From IMG/VR virus record IMGVR_UViG_2667527965_000003, positions 1 through 48,868 of that record: a stretch of DNA of 48,868 bases; one strand, 5' to 3'. The notes beneath the pieces were generated by a model. The model saw only the letters and a program-made list of their open reading frames with translations. It was not told where the DNA came from and searched no databases. Positions within the stretch are counted from its first letter, which is position 1; every line of letters starts with the position of its first letter. Shown in pieces: positions 1 through 48,592 of the stretch. Source of the stretch: a virus (taxonomy: Duplodnaviria > Heunggongvirae > Uroviricota > Caudoviricetes). A program made the position numbers and the translations under genes.

Positions 1-342
1 ATGATGAAAAAAAGTATTCTGGCGTTTCTGTTACTCACCAGTTCTGCAGCGGCGCTGGCTGCACCGCAGGTGATTACCGTCAGCCGTTTTGAAGTGGGTA
101 AAGACAAATGGGCGTTTAATCGCGAAGAGGTGATGCTGACTTGCAGACCGGGTAATGCTTTGTATGTCATTAACCCAAGTACCCTCGTGCAGTATCCTTT
201 AAACGATATCGCACAGAAGGAAGTTGCCAGTGGGAAGACTAAAGCCCAACCCATTTCGGTGATTCAGATTGATGATCCCAACAATCCCGGCGAAAAAATG
301 AGTCTGGCACCGTTTATAGAACGAGCTGAAAAACTCTGTTAA
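1..342 (+). CDS. yebY: YebY-like secreted protein (DUF2511), host gene
   Basis: 113-aa ORF with N-terminal signal peptide ([20 protein letters not shown]); sequence recognised from memory as enterobacterial YebY; followed by hairpin terminator. Confidence 0.75.
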
Positions 343-377
343 TTACCTAAAATAGCCTTTTGATTTCCAATAAAAAA

Positions 378-413
378 ACCGCCTCAGTTCTTTCACCAGA
401 ACGGGCGGTTTTT
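378..413. terminator. Rho-independent terminator downstream of yebY
   Basis: ACCGCC...GGCGGT stem with inner GTTCT/AGAAC pairing followed by TTTT. Confidence 0.5.
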
Positions 414-500
414 AACATTTAAGCTGATGACCACCGCGCTTTTTATTGACCATTTTGCACGCAAACTGGAAAACCTGGCGTCGTCATCTATTCTTAAAGG

Positions 501-603
501 GCAAGGCAACTAAGCCTGCATTAATGCCAACTTTTAGCGCACGGCTCTCTCCCAAGAGCCATTTCCCTGGACCGAATACAGGAATCGTATTCGGTCTCTT
601 TTT
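501..603 (+). ncRNA. sdsR: SdsR (RyeB) small RNA
   Basis: Lies in the yebY-pphA intergenic context; sequence GCAAGGCAACTAAGCCTGCATTAATGCC...CCAAGAGCC... ends in perfect hairpin ACCGAATAC/GTATTCGGT plus T-tract; matches my recollection of E. coli RyeB/SdsR, not checked against a database. Confidence 0.6.
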
Positions 604-605
604 AT
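572..605. repeat. attL: left copy of 34-bp imperfect direct repeat (prophage boundary)
   Basis: CCGAATACAGGAATCGTATTCGGTCTCTTTTTAT here versus CCGTAAACAGGAATCGTGTTCGGTCTCTTTTTAT at 47769-47802; 16 bp TTCGGTCTCTTTTTAT identical; integrase gene immediately adjacent. Confidence 0.65.
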
Positions 606-638
606 GTCTTTGATTTCTATGGGTTTTTTTGGCGTCCT

Positions 639-667
639 CACGAAATCCCACGAAAATTACTCGAAAT
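639..667 (+). promoter_or_regulatory. Putative integrase arm-type binding sites
   Basis: Three direct repeats CACGAAAT / CACGAAAA / CTCGAAAT at 10-11 bp spacing between att core and int; similar CACGAATT / CTCGAATA at 47630-47659 next to attR. Confidence 0.3.
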
Positions 668-680
668 GTCCATATACTGT

Positions 681-1766
681 CTAAACCATAACATACTCTG
701 CACCGCGTGCGTCCAGGTATTTTTTCGTCATTGTTAAATTTTTGTGGCCCAGTAATCGCTGTGCAAAATCCTCGCCACGTTCCTTTTCATAGAGTCTGCT
801 CGCCAAGCTCCTGATCTCATGGTACGGAGGCGGGTTAGGCCCAAATTTTAAAGCAGTCGCATCACGAACGTCGGCAAACGCCTGAGTTAATCCATCAGGG
901 GTAAGAGGCCCCGGCTTTCTGCCGCCGCGCCTGACTGGCGAGTAAAGCATAAAATCTGAAGGATTATTCACCCTGCAGCGCTCGATCACTTCTCCCAGCA
1001 CCAGGCCAACAGCTTCCAGTTTTAAATCGAGTGGGAGCGCCAGCTTGTGCCCGGTCTTTTCCTGAGTAACGAACAACCTGTTTTCTTTTACATCACTGAA
1101 CCGGAAAAGCGAAATATCTTCGCGGCGCTGACCAGACACCAGGGCAAGATCGCACGCATTCGGCAGCCATTCCGAATGAGTGAAAGCCGCCTCCCTGATC
1201 ACAACAAAATGCTCGAGCAGCAAACGCTCACGTTTAACCTTCGGCGTCGGCGTTCGTGTCGGCTCCGCCGGGTTCCTCTCTATATGCCCCTCCACGATTG
1301 CCTCCCTGAATATGTCCAACAGTACCGACCGCAAGCCAGCCGCCATACTCTTCTTGTCGCAGAGGATGTATGACTCCAGGAAGTTCGATATGTCCTTTGT
1401 GCTGACTGACGACAGCGGCGTGCGGCCGAACTCATCATTAATAGTGGCGATCTGATTTCGCCTGACCTTCATCGTGTTTGGCTTCAGCTCTCTTCGCTCC
1501 AGAATTACCTCGTAACGCTCAAGCCACGCCGACACCGTAAAAGTCGGCGCGTCTTTAATGCGGTCCAGAAGTGAGGACGGGAGGTAGTTCTGGTCGATGT
1601 AGTTGTTGGCTTCTATTGCCTGGGCGACGGCGTCTTTTCTGTCGATCCGGCCAAGAGAGATTTCCTGGCCGGTTGTCGGATTTCGCCAGCTGTAAAGCCT
1701 GTCTCTTTTGCGATAGGTCAGGTTACGGGGCAGATTAGCGTCGTAACGAACTGGCCTTTTCGCCAT
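681..1766 (-). CDS. int: Tyrosine site-specific integrase (lambda Int family)
   Basis: 361-aa ORF adjacent to att; C-terminal catalytic motifs (HEIRSL, LLGHKN, TKKYLD tyrosine); overlaps excisionase as in lambda. Confidence 0.85.
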   Translation of the reverse strand: MAKRPVRYDANLPRNLTYRKRDRLYSWRNPTTGQEISLGRIDRKDAVAQAIEANNYIDQNYLPSSLLDRIKDAPTFTVSAWLERYEVILERRELKPNTMKVRRNQIATINDEFGRTPLSSVSTKDISNFLESYILCDKKSMAAGLRSVLLDIFREAIVEGHIERNPAEPTRTPTPKVKRERLLLEHFVVIREAAFTHSEWLPNACDLALVSGQRREDISLFRFSDVKENRLFVTQEKTGHKLALPLDLKLEAVGLVLGEVIERCRVNNPSDFMLYSPVRRGGRKPGPLTPDGLTQAFADVRDATALKFGPNPPPYHEIRSLASRLYEKERGEDFAQRLLGHKNLTMTKKYLDARGAEYVMV

Positions 1767-2007
1767 GAGTCAGTCTCTCCAGTAAGGTGCCGCCAGCTGG
1801 CAGCTTCATGTGTTTTGTCTTGGGGCGCAGATTCTTTTTGCTCGGATCCACATACGTGGCGCCAGGCTCAACCTGATATTCCCTACCGTGCAATTGGGGC
1901 GCAGGATAAATACGCCCCTCTCGTGCCCAGCGGCGAAGAGTGGAAAGGGAAGGCGGCTTTGAGTAAGTCAGGTCTGCCCATTCCTGTAAATTTAGAAGCT
2001 TGGCCAT
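1735..2007 (-). CDS. xis: Excisionase (Xis-like)
   Basis: MAKLLNLQEWADLTYSKPPSLSTLRRWAREGRIYPAP... resembles lambda Xis; GGAGGA RBS before ATG at 2007; overlaps int start. Confidence 0.7.
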   Translation of the reverse strand: MAKLLNLQEWADLTYSKPPSLSTLRRWAREGRIYPAPQLHGREYQVEPGATYVDPSKKNLRPKTKHMKLPAGGTLLERLTHGEKASSLRR

Positions 2008-2071
2008 ACATCCTCCTGCTTCCGACAACTCATTATAAAGTTGCCGGAAAAGTGTTTGTGATATTTCAATA

Positions 2072-2317
2072 TCAGGCGGCATGCCCGGATAAAGATCGCA
2101 GGCGGCGCATGCCCGTCATCGCCGTGGCCACGTAGCTCGCCTTCCGGTTCACCACCTCCACCCAGACCTTCACGCCTTCCACCCGCACCGTGTACGTCTC
2201 CCTCATCTTGCTGCGCCCGTAATCGCCGTAGCGTTCTGCGTGGGCCGCCAGCGCGAGCTCACATGCCTTGCGCGCCAGTGGGGACTGTGTGCTGCGGTTA
2301 ATCAGTTTCATGGCCAC
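2072..2317 (-). CDS. Hypothetical small phage protein
   Basis: 81-aa ORF in the int-proximal early-left operon; no recognisable motif. Confidence 0.4.
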   Translation of the reverse strand: MAMKLINRSTQSPLARKACELALAAHAERYGDYGRSKMRETYTVRVEGVKVWVEVVNRKASYVATAMTGMRRLRSLSGHAA

Positions 2318-2984
2318 CTCCTTCGATACGTTTAAACTCGATCACCCAGACCCACGGGTTAGCGTTCCAATTTTCTTGTCCATAGATTGATTGCCACAGG
2401 TATGCAAAGGCATCAGTCGCGTCAGGTTCTGGATTCGCGCAGCCACATGGCTCCGGCTCTCCACAATTGAGGCAACCACCGTCAATGATCCCTTCCGCTC
2501 GCGCATCTTCCTCACTGATATCGTTCAGCCTTTCAACGCGCACATCGGTAATTTCCAGTAGTATGCGGGACGCCCAGCGAGGCATGTGAATGGATGGACG
2601 CCAACGGCCTTCTTTCGGCCAGTCTTCCGGCGTTGTCGCGCGGTATGCCATATCGTGGCTGTCCTGGTCGATGTTGTAGCGCGCCCAAGTTTCCCGCACC
2701 CAGATGCGATCGCCGACGGCACCGAACGGGCAGGTATATCCTTCATTCTCGTCAGCAACCCCAAATACATCTTTCTTTGCAGGTTGCAGGTAGCCGTTTT
2801 TGTCTACTACACCGGGTGTGTACCAGTGGGCTTTAGAATCCAGATCGAAACCGTTATGTGTTGGGTGGAAGCCATCAGAAGGCTGAATTTTCATAATGCG
2901 CCGCGTCTGCGTCTTCCGGCCGTCGAGAATGGCGCGCACCATCTCACCGTTAAAAATCATCCCGCGTTCTGTAATTTTCGTCAT
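2298..2984 (-). CDS. ASCH-domain protein
   Basis: N-terminal ILDGRKTQTRR and C-terminal VWVIEFKRI resemble the ASCH/YqfB pattern (ILAGRKTITIR ... VIEFK). Confidence 0.5.
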   Translation of the reverse strand: MTKITERGMIFNGEMVRAILDGRKTQTRRIMKIQPSDGFHPTHNGFDLDSKAHWYTPGVVDKNGYLQPAKKDVFGVADENEGYTCPFGAVGDRIWVRETWARYNIDQDSHDMAYRATTPEDWPKEGRWRPSIHMPRWASRILLEITDVRVERLNDISEEDARAEGIIDGGCLNCGEPEPCGCANPEPDATDAFAYLWQSIYGQENWNANPWVWVIEFKRIEGGGHETD

Positions 2985-3018
2985 CTCGTTACCGGGAGGA
3001 CGAACCCTCCCGCCTCCC

Positions 3019-4110
3019 TTAGGCCACGTATTCCGGTTTCATATCTGCCAGGGTGATGCTGAACTTATCGTGCAGCTCGTCGCCCAGGTGACGTTTCGCC
3101 GCCGCCAGCGCGCGCTCGGCTTCTTCGAACCGCTCAGTTGCGCCCGGCTCGCCCGAATTCGGCAGGGAGTTAATCGCCGCCTCGACCCGGTTATACGCAT
3201 CCACCAGGTGGTAACGCTTCACGGCCTTGTTCTTAAGTTCGGTGTACAGCGTAGAACCCAGCGCTGCTTTAGCTGTTTCGATATCAGCACGAACTGCGCT
3301 GGCGCTATCAACATCCTGAGCAGCCTCAATTCGATCCCGGAAATCATCGGCCAGACCATCGATGTTGGCGGCCGATTCCTGCGCGATGTGCGTATGTGTT
3401 ACGGTGTCACCTTTGATATCAGCCAGGCTTACGCGCTGGGCGGGTGCCGGGTTGATCTCCTTCTCGGTGCGCTGCTCGACTTCATCCACACTGTTTACGC
3501 CAAGAATCACGTCAGGGCAGTAGAGGCTAGCCCAGCGTTTAACCCCCAGATAAGCTAGTTGCTGACGCGGATCGCTTGCCCAGAGTGTCGAGTTGCGAAC
3601 CTGAGCTTGAGAAAGCATGAGCACCAGCTCACGTGGTTCATCCTCGCCTTTCATGGTTGCCCACACCCGCACACCTACACCGGCCTCATCCTTTAAATCC
3701 CAGCCTGGCGCGAGGTATTCATTGCCTTTGCTGCTGGTTTTTTTAACAAAGCGTCCAACGATGTTTTCCCAGCTCCCAAACCAGTCATAATGGAGGCGGT
3801 CTTTAGTGGGTGACATTTTGGTGATCACCGCGTTAATCAACTGCGCCTCATAACCTAACGACCCGCTAATAATGTGAGTCTTTTGCGCTACAGCGAAAGG
3901 ATCCATACCCCATCGGGCTGCTTGCATCACTACTGCCATGCAGGCATCCGGCTTGCCGCGAAAGTGGTCAGGCACGAACGCGCCACTGTTAGCCATTACT
4001 ACTGAGAGAGTGCGCAGGCGCTCGAAGAGCTCCCCATTGGTTAAAATGGAGATGTTGTCGATCAGTTGCGTCTTGTTTTCGTTTGTAGAAATTGCGGTAG
4101 ACATGTTCAT
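3019..4110 (-). CDS. recT: RecT-family single-strand annealing protein
   Basis: 363 aa; MAVVMQAARWGMDP segment resembles the RecT core; immediately downstream of a RecE-like exonuclease gene in the same operon. Confidence 0.65.
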   Translation of the reverse strand: MNMSTAISTNENKTQLIDNISILTNGELFERLRTLSVVMANSGAFVPDHFRGKPDACMAVVMQAARWGMDPFAVAQKTHIISGSLGYEAQLINAVITKMSPTKDRLHYDWFGSWENIVGRFVKKTSSKGNEYLAPGWDLKDEAGVGVRVWATMKGEDEPRELVLMLSQAQVRNSTLWASDPRQQLAYLGVKRWASLYCPDVILGVNSVDEVEQRTEKEINPAPAQRVSLADIKGDTVTHTHIAQESAANIDGLADDFRDRIEAAQDVDSASAVRADIETAKAALGSTLYTELKNKAVKRYHLVDAYNRVEAAINSLPNSGEPGATERFEEAERALAAAKRHLGDELHDKFSITLADMKPEYVA

Positions 4111-9646: not shown

Positions 9647-10570
9647 ATGTCAAATACCGCTGAAGTTATCAAATTTCCGACTAAAACCGAGCAAGCAGGA
9701 GGTCCCATGGCCGACCTGTCCAACGGGTACACCCGGATCGCAAACGAGATTCAGAAGCTGAAACCGCGCCTGCGCATGTCAGGGCGTGAATGGCAGTGCC
9801 TGGAAGCGGTGATCTGGCTTACCTACGGATGGAACAAGAAACAGGACCGGGTTACCAACACCGTCATCGCCGGGCTCACAGGGCTGGCTGACACGCATGT
9901 TTCTGATGCGATCAGCTCTCTGGCAGAGCGTGGAATTATTTTTAGTCACAAGCAGGGCGTGATGAAAATTGTCGGTATAAATACTGACCTATCAGCCTGG
10001 ATTTTGGACAAACCGAAAACGGGAAAACTCTTCCCGAAAACGGGAAAATCCTTCCCGAAATCGAGAAAAACCTTCCCGGAAACGGTAGCCACCCAAGACT
10101 ATAACAATAACAATATTAAAAGATCATCGTCAGAGAATTCTGGCGAATCCTCCGACGACCGTCTGAAGAAGTTTTTATCAGCTCATCCTGAGGCGGTGAT
10201 TTACACCCCCAACTTCACCAAGTGGGGCACTGCAGCCGACCAGCAGTGCGCTGAGTGGATCCTCGCCCTGCTCGAAAAAGTTAAACCCTTCCCGAAGCAA
10301 CCCGTCATGGCCTCCTGGGCTAACGACGTGCGCCTGATGCGTGAACTGGACGGCCGCAGCCATCGTGAAATTTGCGAGCTATTCCAGTGGGCGAGCAAAG
10401 ACGCGTTCTGGCATACCAACATCCTCTCGCCTGCAAAGCTCCGTGCTAAGTGGGACACGCTGAGCCTTCAGCGCGATTCCGGCCGCCGGAAGAATGTCGC
10501 GAGCGCCCAGGGCATCGACTTCAACAATACAGACTGGATCAACGAGGTGTTCGATGGAAAGACTATCTGA
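9647..10570 (+). CDS. Replication initiator (lambda O-like)
   Basis: 307 aa; N-terminal GYTRIANEIQKLKPRLRMSGREWQCLEAVIWLTYGWNKK resembles phage O N-terminal domain; gene contains tandem iterons plus AT-rich tract. Confidence 0.7.
   Translation: MSNTAEVIKFPTKTEQAGGPMADLSNGYTRIANEIQKLKPRLRMSGREWQCLEAVIWLTYGWNKKQDRVTNTVIAGLTGLADTHVSDAISSLAERGIIFSHKQGVMKIVGINTDLSAWILDKPKTGKLFPKTGKSFPKSRKTFPETVATQDYNNNNIKRSSSENSGESSDDRLKKFLSAHPEAVIYTPNFTKWGTAADQQCAEWILALLEKVKPFPKQPVMASWANDVRLMRELDGRSHREICELFQWASKDAFWHTNILSPAKLRAKWDTLSLQRDSGRRKNVASAQGIDFNNTDWINEVFDGKTI
10013..10130. repeat. Putative origin of replication: 3-4 tandem 21-bp iterons plus AT-rich tract inside the O-like gene
   Basis: CCGAAAACGGGAAAACTCTTC / CCGAAAACGGGAAAATCCTTC / CCGAAATCGAGAAAAACCTTC / degenerate CCGGAAACGGTAGCC, then ACTATAACAATAACAATATTAAAAGA. 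Confidence 0.6.
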
Positions 10571-29760: not shown

Positions 29761-29777
29761 ATAAAAATACCAATTGA

Positions 29778-29797
29778 CCCGCTTCGGCGGGTTTTTT
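29778..29797 (+). terminator. Rho-independent terminator
   Basis: CCCGC-TTCG-GCGGG hairpin plus TTTTTT; same hairpin motif recurs at 37618 and 44627. Confidence 0.65.
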
Positions 29798-29828
29798 ATT
29801 GCCTGAAATTCACCAATGAGGACGCAAC

Positions 29829-37325: not shown

Positions 37326-37613
37326 ATGAGAAAGACGATGTTGTTGTTAGCACTAAGTTGCTCATTGTCTGCTGCGCATGCAAACAGCGATATGAGATCA
37401 ACACTTCAAGCTTCTGAGAATGCAATTTGTCAGGATAACGCAAAAAAAGAGCAGTGCATTACAGCGGTTCAGAAGCTCATGTTTGCAGTCAGCAAAGTTA
37501 CTGAGCTTAATGAAAACTGCAAGAAGCCGAATGGCAATGTTGGAATTGAACAGCAATGCCAACAGTCTGAAGAAGCTATAGGCTACATAAATAGCCTGGT
37601 AAATAAACCATAA
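37326..37613 (+). CDS. Secreted Cys-rich small protein, moron
   Basis: 95 aa from ATG at 37326; signal peptide MRKTMLLLALSCSLSAAHA; several Cys; followed by terminator. Confidence 0.45.
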   Translation: MRKTMLLLALSCSLSAAHANSDMRSTLQASENAICQDNAKKEQCITAVQKLMFAVSKVTELNENCKKPNGNVGIEQQCQQSEEAIGYINSLVNKP

Positions 37614-37617
37614 CCAA

Positions 37618-37638
37618 CCCGCTCCGGCGGGTTTTTTT
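37618..37638 (+). terminator. Rho-independent terminator
   Basis: CCCGC-TCCG-GCGGG hairpin plus TTTTTTT. Confidence 0.65.
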
Positions 37639-37654
37639 ATAGCCGGAGATAATA

Positions 37655-44605: not shown

Positions 44606-44626
44606 CAGCAAATCAAAATTATCTGA

Positions 44627-44647
44627 CCCGCTTCGGCGGGTTTTTTT
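44627..44647 (+). terminator. Rho-independent terminator
   Basis: CCCGC-TTCG-GCGGG hairpin plus TTTTTTT. Confidence 0.65.
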
Positions 44648-44662
44648 ATGCCCGGAGCGAGC

Positions 44663-47051: not shown

Positions 47052-47291
47052 ATGCCACGCAGAATCGATATTGAGGGTGCTTTTCACACAGCCATTAAAC
47101 ACGAGTCCAACGGGCGCCGTACGGTGACTACTGAGGACTTCGTGAAGCACCTGGCCCGCGCTAACTGGAACTGGTCGCTTAAAGAGGCGAACGACTGGAT
47201 CGAGAGCCACGTTTCTACCTTTAAGGATGTTTCGACCTGTGAGGGCCAGGCGCGCACCTTCATGCTCTACAACCCGAACGGAGGCCTGTGA
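47052..47291 (+). CDS. DinI-like small protein, SOS-regulated (tentative)
   Basis: 79 aa; AAGGAGGGG RBS; directly downstream of LexA box; N-terminus MPRRIDIEG and ANDWIESH segment loosely resemble DinI (MRIEVTI... / ADDWFVSE). Confidence 0.4.
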   Translation: MPRRIDIEGAFHTAIKHESNGRRTVTTEDFVKHLARANWNWSLKEANDWIESHVSTFKDVSTCEGQARTFMLYNPNGGL

Positions 47292-47292
47292 C

Positions 47293-47610
47293 ATGGGCTT
47301 TCCATCTCCAGCTGCTGATTACGTTTCTCAGCGAATGACCCCGGAGCTCATTTGCGGCGTCAGTATTGATACCCGCATTCTTGAAACATCATCCGGTTTC
47401 GCATTAATCGAACCGGTTACCCGGTTAGTGCAAGGTCAGGTTCTGCTGATTTTGTCCGGCGGCAGGACGCAGTTTGTGAAACTCAGGGGCAGGGCATTAA
47501 TCACTGATGATGGTGAAGCGATCGAGGGGGAGGCGGCGGAGGAAGTTGAGGTTCTGGGGCGAGTGACGTTCTTCATCAACAGTGCGCTGCAGGATGACAG
47601 AATTGTGTGA
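47293..47610 (+). CDS. UmuD'-like (S24-fold) protein starting at the UmuD cleavage-product N-terminus
   Basis: 105 aa; begins MGFPSPAADYVSQR, matching the UmuD' N-terminus GFPSPAADYVEQR; C-terminal region (GQVLLILSGGRTQFVKLRGRALI) aligns loosely with UmuD; no umuC-like gene adjacent. Confidence 0.5.
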   Translation: MGFPSPAADYVSQRMTPELICGVSIDTRILETSSGFALIEPVTRLVQGQVLLILSGGRTQFVKLRGRALITDDGEAIEGEAAEEVEVLGRVTFFINSALQDDRIV

Positions 47611-47629
47611 ATTTGTGGATCGAGGTGCC

Positions 47630-47659
47630 CACGAATTTCACTCGTCGCCCACTCGAATA
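47630..47659 (+). promoter_or_regulatory. Putative integrase arm-type sites near attR
   Basis: CACGAATT and CTCGAATA direct repeats resembling the repeats at 639-667. Confidence 0.25.
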
Positions 47660-47768
47660 ATAAAGTAACGGTTTGATCTTGAAAGAACGCAATGGTAAGT
47701 GTTGTAACGCTTATTTTGGGGTGTTTTCGATGGTAACTGCTTGATAGATAACGAAGAACAGAGCTTGA

Positions 47769-47802
47769 GCCGTAAACAGGAATCGTGTTCGGTCTCTTTT
47801 TA
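47769..47802. repeat. attR: right copy of 34-bp imperfect direct repeat
   Basis: CCGTAAACAGGAATCGTGTTCGGTCTCTTTTTAT; 31/34 identical to 572-605. Confidence 0.65.
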
Positions 47803-47932
47803 TCTGTTAAAAGCCAGAAGCATTTCCTTCGCTGACTTTATAGTCAACCATAACACACACTCTACTGTCTGAGTCCAGCATTTTTTAACATTCTTGTTAA
47901 GATTATGTGATCTTTAGCGCGGGAGGAAAATA

Positions 47933-48592
47933 TTGATGAAACAGCCTGCGCCCGTTTATCAGAGAATTGCGGGTCATCAATGGCGACATATCTGGCTTTC
48001 TGGCGATATACACGGTTGTCTTGAGCAGTTGCGCCGCAAATTATGGCATTGTCGTTTTGATCCGTGGCGAGATTTACTTATCTCAGTGGGAGACGTTATC
48101 GATCGTGGGCCGCAAAGTTTACGTTGTCTGCAGTTACTGGAACAACATTGGGTTCGTGCGGTAAGAGGCAATCATGAACAGATGGCGATGGATGCGCTGG
48201 CATCCCAGCAGATGTCTTTATGGTTGATGAATGGCGGCGACTGTTTTATTGCGCTGGCAGATAATCAACAGAAACAAGCGAAAACGGCGCTGGGGAAATG
48301 TCAGCATTTGCCCTTTATTCTTGAAGTACACAGTCGCACCGGCAAGCATGTTATTGCTCATGCCGATTATCCAGATGATGTTTATGAATGGCAAAAGGAC
48401 GTCGATTTGCATCAGGTCTTGTGGAGCCGCTCGCGATTAAGTGAACGCCAAAAAGTGCAGGGAATTACAGGTGCTGATCATTTCTGGTTTGGTCATACAC
48501 CGTTGCGACATCGCGTGGATATTGGCAACCTGCATTATATTGATACCGGTGCTGTCTTTGGGGGCGAACTGACTCTTGTGCAATTGCAATAA
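47933..48592 (+). CDS. pphA: Serine/threonine protein phosphatase 1 (host gene)
   Basis: 219 aa with metallophosphatase motifs (GDIHGC, GDVIDRG, GNHE); recognised as E. coli-type PphA. Confidence 0.8.
   Translation: MMKQPAPVYQRIAGHQWRHIWLSGDIHGCLEQLRRKLWHCRFDPWRDLLISVGDVIDRGPQSLRCLQLLEQHWVRAVRGNHEQMAMDALASQQMSLWLMNGGDCFIALADNQQKQAKTALGKCQHLPFILEVHSRTGKHVIAHADYPDDVYEWQKDVDLHQVLWSRSRLSERQKVQGITGADHFWFGHTPLRHRVDIGNLHYIDTGAVFGGELTLVQLQ

Follow-up and report, generated by a model that had tools for sequence, protein, structure and literature searches.

Probable integration of a lambdoid prophage into the terminator of the small-RNA gene sdsR (ryeB) of Escherichia coli and its predicted effects on the antisense RNA RyeA

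The integration site

Which host element did the prophage contained in this DNA use as its target, and what becomes of a regulatory RNA gene which ends just where the phage begins? These questions are raised by the IMG/VR virus record IMGVR_UViG_2667527965_000003, positions 1 to 48,868 (here called the window, i.e., the whole stretch of 48,868 nt that was analysed). In it the gene of the small RNA (sRNA) SdsR, also named RyeB, lies at the left end of a prophage and the host gene pphA beyond the right end. A first-pass annotation had placed the insertion at the 3' end of SdsR/RyeB rather than in a tRNA gene, and our comparisons fully support this. Taken as a whole, the best explanation, which we regard as very probable, is that a complete lambdoid prophage of ~47.2 kb was integrated site-specifically by the integrase Int into the terminator of sdsR. 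The phage attachment site (attP) carries a near-copy of the last ~34 bp of sdsR, and Int would mediate site-specific recombination at the terminator. The main features of the locus are:

1-342, plus strand: yebY, the host gene upstream of sdsR; matches the annotated yebY of K-12 and of other E. coli
501-603, plus strand: sdsR (ryeB) small-RNA gene (Rfam RF00111); its last ~15 nt (589-603) are phage-derived here
589-47786: prophage DNA, ~47.2 kb, of a mosaic lambdoid siphovirus; left boundary within 578-589, right boundary within 47775-47786
47936-48592, plus strand: pphA, coding for a lambda-PP-like phosphatase; annotated in K-12 and others

The assignment to SdsR, initially made by recognition of the sequence, is confirmed by the Rfam model RF00111 (SdsR_RyeB), which covers positions 504-603 of the plus strand over model positions 1-100 with 116.4 bits (gathering score 38). 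In comparison to K-12, where the annotated sdsR corresponds to window 500-603, a single base differs, at 589. Positions 456-588, including DNA upstream of sdsR, match K-12 without difference, and sdsR is located downstream of yebY, in line with the published synteny (PMC3333887). The transcription start lies 1 nt inside the old annotation and the 3' ends are at +100 to +102 (PMC6610125). The terminator consists of a stem at 569-597 with 11 pairs (569-579 with 587-597) and the 7-nt loop AGGAATC (580-586), followed by a T-run. To judge from this alignment, SdsR is full length and its Rho-independent terminator intact after integration, with upstream DNA the same as in K-12. Integration rebuilds the full-length gene with phage DNA as its last ~15 nt, and the sRNA, its sigma-S promoter and its terminator would survive.

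For reconstruction of the empty site, 1-605 was joined to 47804-end. This yebY-sdsR-pphA site is contiguous in 5191 out of 5426 complete E. coli genomes, with ~235 being interrupted, and the precise empty junction with a single core copy is found in 96% of the E. coli genomes. The uninterrupted yebY-pphA loci, which had been singled out for comparison, hold one core copy; two copies 47 kb apart are not the state of the empty site. The reconstructed attP (47600-47786 joined to 589-800) matches the Flyfo siphovirus Tbat2_3 in one piece over the junction. In the core there is no difference from Salmonella phage ZC-S1_prp and hardly any from 'Actinobacillus phage vB_Apl-pPE4'. Of 80 IMG/VR contigs coding for close relatives of the integrase (87-99% identical), 78 have this gene adjoining the 3' end of sdsR, and a further one contains attP in uninterrupted form. 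We also scanned for the core across species, with one genome per bacterial species, and found at least 120 loci. Among the matches listed, an int homologue or a C-terminal Int remnant is located directly downstream in 20 of 108 sdsR ends, and 13 additional hits are of the attR type. The flanks of the insertion are 98-99% identical to E. coli, and the insert resembles phages of Klebsiella, Cronobacter and Enterobacter.

Attachment sites and strand exchange

The two ends of the prophage share a repeat, from which the point of recombination was narrowed down:

572-605: attL copy of the 34-bp att repeat, comprising the SdsR terminator hairpin and T-run (repeat comparison)
47770-47803: attR copy of the att repeat; its left part is phage (T47773, A47775), host from G47787 onward
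578-588: strand-exchange interval ACAGGAATCGT; in attL host-specific bases lie to its left and a phage-specific base to its right, reciprocally in attR
589, plus strand: phage-derived A, SdsR position +89, where G is native to E. coli (allele counts and attP sequences)

The sequence 572-605, that is the last 34 bp of the sdsR end, recurs at 47770-47803 with identity at 31 of 34 positions. The recurrence with three mismatches had been noticed before, but the right copy had been placed one base too low, at 47769-47802. The mismatches are at 575/47773 (A/T), 577/47775 (T/A) and 589/47787 (A/G). In none of 100 dinucleotide-preserving shuffles did a second match to the repeat with three or fewer mismatches occur. 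The block of att identity, 578-605, takes in the final 26 nt of sdsR.

At the position of window base 589, complete E. coli genomes have G in 5348 and A in 57 cases (57/5405). The contiguous attP sequences (three phage genomes and one viral contig) have A in four out of four, and so do the attL junctions of the integrase relatives (78 out of 78). Left of ACAGG, the attP sequences examined read TAA or AAA where the host has AAT. The window is composed accordingly: attL has the host bases A at 575 and T at 577 together with the phage A at 589, and attR is of phage type at 47773 and 47775 but of host type at 47787. Since A589 belongs to the phage attP and the bases at 575 and 577 to the host, the exchange is placed within 578-588; the one-base difference between E. 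coli sdsR and attP provides the lysogen with an internal marker, so that the exchange becomes mappable to 11 bp. By these markers, strand exchange took place inside ACAGGAATCGT, an interval which contains the 7-nt terminator loop. In E. coli 98232, which holds a decayed 8-kb remnant of the same element, A is likewise found at attL and G at attR. A second integrase lineage segregates alike (attL of STEC 97-3250, where STEC stands for Shiga toxin-producing E. coli, and attR of SK6988), with an extra C/T marker in the T-run on the phage side. By analogy with lambda and with integrases targeting tRNA genes, for which anticodon stem-loops play this part, the loop AGGAATC (580-586) would be the overlap region and the stem arms inverted core-type Int sites. 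The attP of the excised phage is predicted to contain TAAACAGGAATCGTA, reading GCCGTAAACAGGAATCGTATTCGGTCTCTTTTTATGTC, and attB to be restored with G.

The left hairpin had been described as perfect and the right one as disrupted by a change from A to G. The left copy indeed has 11 pairs and the right one is weaker (RNAfold, -8.9 vs -15.8 kcal/mol in the left copy), but the direction of the change was wrong, G being native and A589 phage-derived. Moreover, the attR hairpin is weakened by the two phage bases in its 5' arm (47773, 47775), not by G47787. G89A is the sole change of SdsR in the lysogen represented by the window and turns a G.U wobble into an A-U pair. A strengthening of the terminator by the phage A589 as compared to the native G.U was considered and ruled out: RNAfold gives -15.8 kcal/mol for the left copy with either base, hence no argument from stability can be made for A589.

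Empty yebY-sdsR-pphA sites with A exist in E. coli 600468, STEC005 and MIN10, three of five A-allele genomes examined, and most of the 57 A-allele genomes may be of this kind. A589 was therefore dropped as a marker of lysogeny, and the exchange interval rests on the attP evidence, not on the host allele alone. The idea that the empty A sites are scars of precise excision by Int and Xis was also dropped, as such excision would restore G. These sites could represent a plain polymorphism or the loss of a prophage by homologous recombination in the right 16-bp att block.

The sequences next to the core contain what would be the recombination module:

681-1766, minus strand: int, lambda-type tyrosine integrase of 361 aa (PF09003, PF22022, PF00589)
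1735-2007, minus strand: xis, excisionase (PF07825 Exc, E = 3.9e-21); overlaps the start of int
639-667: three tandem candidate arm-type Int sites of the P' arm, CACGAAAT, CACGAAAAT and CTCGAAAT, read from the sequence
47630-47659: two candidate arm-type sites of the P arm, CACGAATTT and ACTCGAATA, read likewise

An integrase next to the left copy had been noted correctly; its reading frame (681-1766, minus strand) is 76 nt away and contains three Pfam integrase domains, the arm-binding PF09003 (33.2 bits, cut-off 22), PF22022 (34.7 bits) and the catalytic PF00589 (58 bits). Int is 40% identical to HK022 Int, 77% to the Int of Flyfo Tbat2_3 and 51% to that of the pPE4 type. Its translation contains SGQRRED, EKTGHK, HEIRSLASRLYEK and LLGHKNLTMTKKY, which may correspond to the catalytic residues R212, K235, H308/R311 and H333/Y342 of lambda Int. 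The reading frame of xis could extend to 2082; the start giving 90 aa was chosen after a RefSeq homologue, and an excisionase of 273 nt is annotated in strain 98232. The P' repeats follow C(A/T)CGAAA(A)T and recur at intervals of roughly one helical turn. Candidate arm repeats of P' and P are at the same positions in four out of four attP sequences, including those of Flyfo Tbat2_3, ZC-S1_prp and pPE4, and a dyad core with a 7-nt spacer is present in four attP sequences. The module would comprise a lambda-type Int, Xis, three tandem P' repeats and two P repeats as putative binding sites.

Two other explanations for this arrangement were weighed. An ancestral presence of the 47-kb segment, with deletions having produced the empty loci and no site-specific integration, is a formal possibility only, which we regard as practically nil: it is refuted by the empty-site counts, with a precise single-core junction in 96% of the genomes, and by attP sequences spanning the junction contiguously in phage genomes, and it would leave E. 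coli-like flanks around an insert like phages of other genera. It is also conceivable that the exchange occurred further right, in the 16-bp block TTCGGTCTCTTTTTAT, with the left hairpin including A589 being all host and the G of the right copy coming from the phage, as the first-pass description of the hairpins implied. What weighs against our placement here is the A allele of ~1% of E. coli and its occurrence at empty sites, as in 600468, STEC005 and MIN10, which makes a host A possible; furthermore, the exact cleavage positions and the 7-bp overlap would follow from the lambda paradigm. However, an exchange in the right block needs this ~1% host allele plus an attP with G, whereas A is found in all four contiguous attP and in the 78 attL junctions. 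Strain 98232 has, independently, A at attL and G at attR, and the second integrase lineage segregates alike, with its T-run marker on the phage side of attL. We consider an exchange in the right block very improbable and retain the interval 578-588.

RyeA, pphA and a probable older integrase remnant

The sdsR locus is transcribed from both strands, and its antisense partner RyeA (SraC) extends beyond the point of insertion. The following features are relevant:

370-588, minus strand: body of RyeA (SraC) at attL, native nt ~54-64 to nt 272, fully complementary to SdsR (K-12 ryeA mapped)
47804-47839, minus strand: the first 36 nt of native RyeA, whose start is at 47839; identical to K-12, points into the right end of the prophage
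47847-47855, minus strand: native ryeA extended -10 TGTTATGGT, with the hexamer TATGGT at 47847-47852 (primer RyeA-p3)
685-693, minus strand: predicted phage-borne replacement ryeA promoter, extended -10 TGTTATGGT, within the last int codons; start predicted near 677
47844-47920, minus strand: probable fossil of an older lambda-type int 3' end; it forms the promoter of native ryeA and the sequence immediately before pphA

The Rfam model RF00101 (SraC_RyeA) matches at 607-463 on the minus strand with 177.5 bits and spans only the conserved part overlapping sdsR. In K-12, ryeA is located at 1923066-1923337 (plus strand, 272 nt) and sdsR at 1923104-1923207 (minus strand). As had been expected, RyeA starts beyond the 3' end of the sRNA: K-12 ryeA begins 38 nt past the annotated sdsR end, equivalent to window 47839. 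In the window, the native promoter and start are not contiguous with the SdsR-complementary body but 47 kb apart. This promoter is known from the primer RyeA-p3, TGTGTGT-CTCGAG-TGACTATAAAG, and mutation of its hexamer abolishes RyeA (PMC6610125); the primer sequence identifies the replaced -10 hexamer as TATGGT. The gene would thus be split, with the promoter and the first 36 nt at attR, firing into the right end of the phage, and the body at attL. The stranded promoter (start 47839, minus strand) is now antisense to the UmuD'-like gene at 47293-47610 (plus strand), and the junction scan found no terminator-like site between the two.

The proposed separation of RyeA from its target is correct for the native promoter and the first 36 nt; antisense transcription over sdsR as such is probably replaced rather than lost, to judge from a -10 element brought in by the phage. 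The end of int, …Y-V-M-V-stop, forms an extended -10 identical to the validated native one, and a TGGAC element resembling a -35 is at the same spacing in the int end and in the validated promoter. Of 214 regions adjacent to a core, 85 have the extended -10 at this offset, and other lineages have variants of it. An extended -10 is found at the int stop in most of the sdsR-adjacent lineages, including divergent ones with TGATATAAC or TGGTATAAC. A hybrid RyeA starting near 677 and running across sdsR would be ~308 nt long, ~36 nt longer than the native RNA. Scanning both junctions for consensus sigma-70 promoters gave no promoter, but the scan missed the validated native ryeA promoter as well and is therefore uninformative on the phage promoter. 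The presence of a -10 at the int end across lineages agrees with the finding that promoters and lengths of SraC differ between genera while SdsR is conserved (PMC3333887).

Another disruption of the RyeA 5' region was seen in E. coli CUVM53 (NZ_CP116976.1, locus positions 3248-3945), where an IS1 element separates the 3' end of sdsR from the start of ryeA; pphA is frameshifted in this strain as well.

Read-through from sdsR normally drives pphA (PMC6610125). With 47 kb between the sdsR promoter and pphA, this transcription would be lost in the lysogen.

The native ryeA promoter itself is probably a decayed int 3' end, left in Escherichia by an earlier integration at the same site. Positions 47844-47920 align locally to phage positions 672-746 (z = 9.4 vs shuffles) and are 72-76% identical to the int 3' ends of many phages, with the register unchanged throughout. 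Unambiguous C-terminal Int remnants of 25-74 aa exist at the same position in nine other species, and in a multiple alignment each of their blocks has its counterpart in the E. coli, E. ruysiae and E. whittamii spacers. A profile of P'-arm and int 3' ends (nhmmer) has its K-12 match at exactly the predicted position and orientation. The K-12 gene yebW is annotated as YdfD/YebW family, and YdfD is a protein of the Qin prophage. In combination with the lambda-PP-like pphA and the int fossil, this points to an old lambdoid prophage as the source of the whole sdsR-pphA-yebW stretch in E. coli. The native spacer that follows sdsR in Salmonella enterica subsp. diarizonae derives from int of the other lineage (ZC-S1/pPE4 type), as a fossil. 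It keeps CGAAAT arm repeats and the TGATATAAC motif, the latter ~25 nt further from the core than the -10 of E. coli, an offset which fits the published ~35 nt greater length of Salmonella SraC.

With regard to RyeA, antisense control might truly be lost, with no RyeA over sdsR, SdsR de-repressed in exponential phase and the native promoter giving a junk transcript. The native promoter and 5' end are 47 kb away, the -10 motif lies inside int codons and may be a coding by-product, no canonical promoter was found in the promoter scan, and for phage PhiW104 a review reports ryeA down and ryeB up after lysogenisation (PMC7380047). SdsR has been described as a toxin when unopposed. Against such a loss stand the identical 9-bp extended -10 and the TGGAC element at validated spacing in the phage, and the recurrence of the extended -10 at the int stop in divergent lineages with unlike protein C-termini (TGATATAAC, TGGTATAAC). 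Antisense RNA would also arise by read-through from int, and the same review describes ryeA of PhiW104 lysogens as modified and reduced, not abolished. We therefore doubt a complete loss, though it is possible. Convergence or chance, instead of descent, as the reason for the similarity between the native ryeA promoter and the int 3' end appears rather unlikely to us. The genome-scaled E value of the profile is only 0.06-0.35, and tblastn at 1e-5 did not flag the E. coli spacer. On the other hand, place, orientation and register of the match are those predicted, its z value is 9.4, and the Int remnants in nine other species align block for block with the Escherichia spacer. Further points are the Salmonella spacer, a native fossil left by the other lineage of integrases, the lambda-PP-like nature of pphA and the annotation of yebW as YdfD/YebW family.

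Several points count against our interpretation of RyeA as replaced and of its promoter as a fossil. The promoter carried by the phage, the hybrid RyeA and the consequence for pphA are each deduced from sequence. The -10 overlaps the int coding sequence, hence its conservation could reflect protein constraint alone, and Flyfo and a few other lineages are without a clean -10 motif. The nhmmer profile reaches only E = 0.06-0.35 genome-wide in K-12; due to this marginal value we call the fossil no more than probable, on the basis of position, orientation, register and the intermediate remnants.

Going further, one may speculate that RyeA, the 'antitoxin' partner of SdsR, is phage-born and phage-renewed, with an outward-facing extended -10 promoter at the end of int re-creating the antisense RNA at every integration and with the promoter of Escherichia, as well as a different one of Salmonella, being int fossils. 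We put this forward tentatively, as a possible rather than a favoured scenario. If true, the 3' untranslated region of the int mRNA would be RyeA sequence in the lysogen, and SdsR, abundant in stationary phase, could pair with it, leading to cleavage by RNase III. This would be a sib-like retro-regulation of Int and of prophage excision, dependent on a host sRNA. The probable int-fossil origin of the K-12 promoter would, for its part, explain the variation of RyeA/SraC promoters and lengths between genera beside a conserved SdsR.

Related prophages and known systems

Integration at the sdsR/ryeB terminator is already known, from Salmonella (2008), and the window is a well-resolved example from E. 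coli. Balbontin et al. 2008 (J Bacteriol 190:4075) are said by citing papers to have described the integration of PhiW104 at ryeB. PhiW104 of Salmonella Typhimurium DT104 integrates at ryeB/ryeA (PMC7380047, PMC3333887). According to the former, its attachment site is within the last 23 bp of ryeB, internal to ryeA, and in the lysogen the 5' part of ryeA is replaced, with ryeA expression decreased and ryeB expression increased (PMC7380047). The two cases agree in target gene and end, in the regeneration of the sRNA, in the replaced 5' part of ryeA and in the site being a recurrent hot spot for insertions, and the hybrid RyeA proposed here would fit the modified ryeA sequence and expression reported there. 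In contrast, the host here is E. coli, whose native sdsR is one base off attP, which leaves G89A behind and allowed the exchange to be narrowed down to 11 bp. In later comparative studies ryeB figures as an accepted target of integration (PMC3603311), and one island is named 'Cfr111.52.RyeB' (PMC10111431). Our literature searches for an E. coli-specific report of the sdsR site gave only Salmonella-centred or generic mentions. In the literature searched we did not find the exchange mapping, the phage copy of the validated -10 or the int-fossil origin of the K-12 ryeA promoter stated.

The module resembles that of lambda and HK022 in the arm-binding, central and catalytic domains of Int, in an Exc-family excisionase overlapping int, in an int located beside attP and transcribed towards it, and in tandem candidate arm repeats in P' with two more in P. 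It differs in its target, an sRNA terminator instead of the gal-bio intergenic attB, and in its core, a perfect dyad of 10-11 bp with a 7-nt spacer. With integrases targeting tRNA or tmRNA genes it shares the phage copy of the 3' part of a structured RNA gene, the restoration of this gene after insertion and, by analogy, a crossover in a 7-nt loop with symmetric stem. Here, however, the stem-loop terminates transcription of a regulatory sRNA and is neither an anticodon arm nor a T arm. Moreover, the sdsR locus is bidirectional, so that an insertion, unlike one in a tRNA or tmRNA gene, necessarily rewires the antisense partner. The characterised unit affected has three parts: SdsR, its antisense RNA RyeA and the read-through into pphA. 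The sdsR/ryeB terminator is thus an established exception to the tRNA rule, and an exchange in the loop region supports the view that it is the same structural property which makes both terminator hairpins and tRNA stem-loops usable as att sites.

The integrase lineage of the window is found in 5 out of 5426 complete E. coli genomes and is common in other Enterobacteriaceae. More frequent in E. coli is the pPE4-type lineage (228 out of 5426 genomes, including STEC), whose int is at yebY-sdsR in both genomes checked, STEC 97-3250 and SK6988. The pPE4 type and ZC-S1_prp share with the window the core, the triple P' repeats and the exchange interval; the pPE4-type Int is only 51% identical and the attP tail is GGTCTTTTTTT, as a result of which its lysogens gain two SdsR changes. 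At attL of E. coli 97-3250 these are G89A and C to U in the 3' tail, GGUCUUUUUUU for GGUCUCUUUUU, the latter lengthening the U-tract used in termination and Hfq binding. Altogether, ~4% of complete E. coli genomes, STEC among them, hold a prophage at the sdsR site. They probably share an altered RyeA 5' end and promoter, a pphA no longer coupled to the sdsR promoter with its sigma-S dependence, and an SdsR changed at one or two bases.

Two host labels drew our attention in these comparisons. 'Actinobacillus phage vB_Apl-pPE4' (PP818812.1) is labelled as a phage of A. pleuropneumoniae, yet its attP core equals the sdsR terminator of enterobacteria. Prophages in the 228 E. coli genomes (of 5426) match it in int and P' arm with 95-99.7% identity, so the host label looks doubtful or the host range unusually wide. 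A contig of Vagococcus sp. WN89Y, assigned to a Gram-positive organism, also contains the sdsR terminator core; here an enterobacterial contamination of the assembly is likely.

As to the remaining contents of the prophage, genes were found for recombination and modification (RecT, a RecE-like exonuclease, a C5 methylase), for regulation and lysis (a repressor-like regulator, CII-like, O-like and Q-like proteins, endolysin) and for the virion (terminase, portal, head morphogenesis, capsid, major tail, tape measure, a J-like protein and tail fibre). The last gene before attR is:

47293-47610, plus strand: UmuD'-like gene (phrog_3469, E = 3.4e-43)

The phrog_3469 match covers residues 23-125 of the reading frame 47227-47610, and the homologue in strain 98232 is annotated 'DNA polymerase V'. 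A search of the phage collection for a close relative of the whole prophage gave none, only patchy modules with 75-82% identity to Klebsiella, Cronobacter, Enterobacter and E. coli phages. The closest relative in E. coli is the 8-kb remnant in strain 98232 (NZ_CP173446.1, 3652400-3661000), in which attL and attR are still intact and which keeps int, xis, an IS1-truncated RecT, the UmuD'-like gene and an IS3.

Inside the O-like initiator gene (9647-10570), three tandem 21-bp repeats (CCGAAAACGGGAAAACTCTTC and variants) are located at 10013-10075, which probably are origin iterons as in lambda. Finally, three related GC-rich hairpins followed by a T-run (ACCCGCTTCGGCGGGTTTTTTAT) occur between late-gene blocks at 29761-29808, 37601-37648 and 44610-44657; they are probably intrinsic terminators reused in the structural operon.

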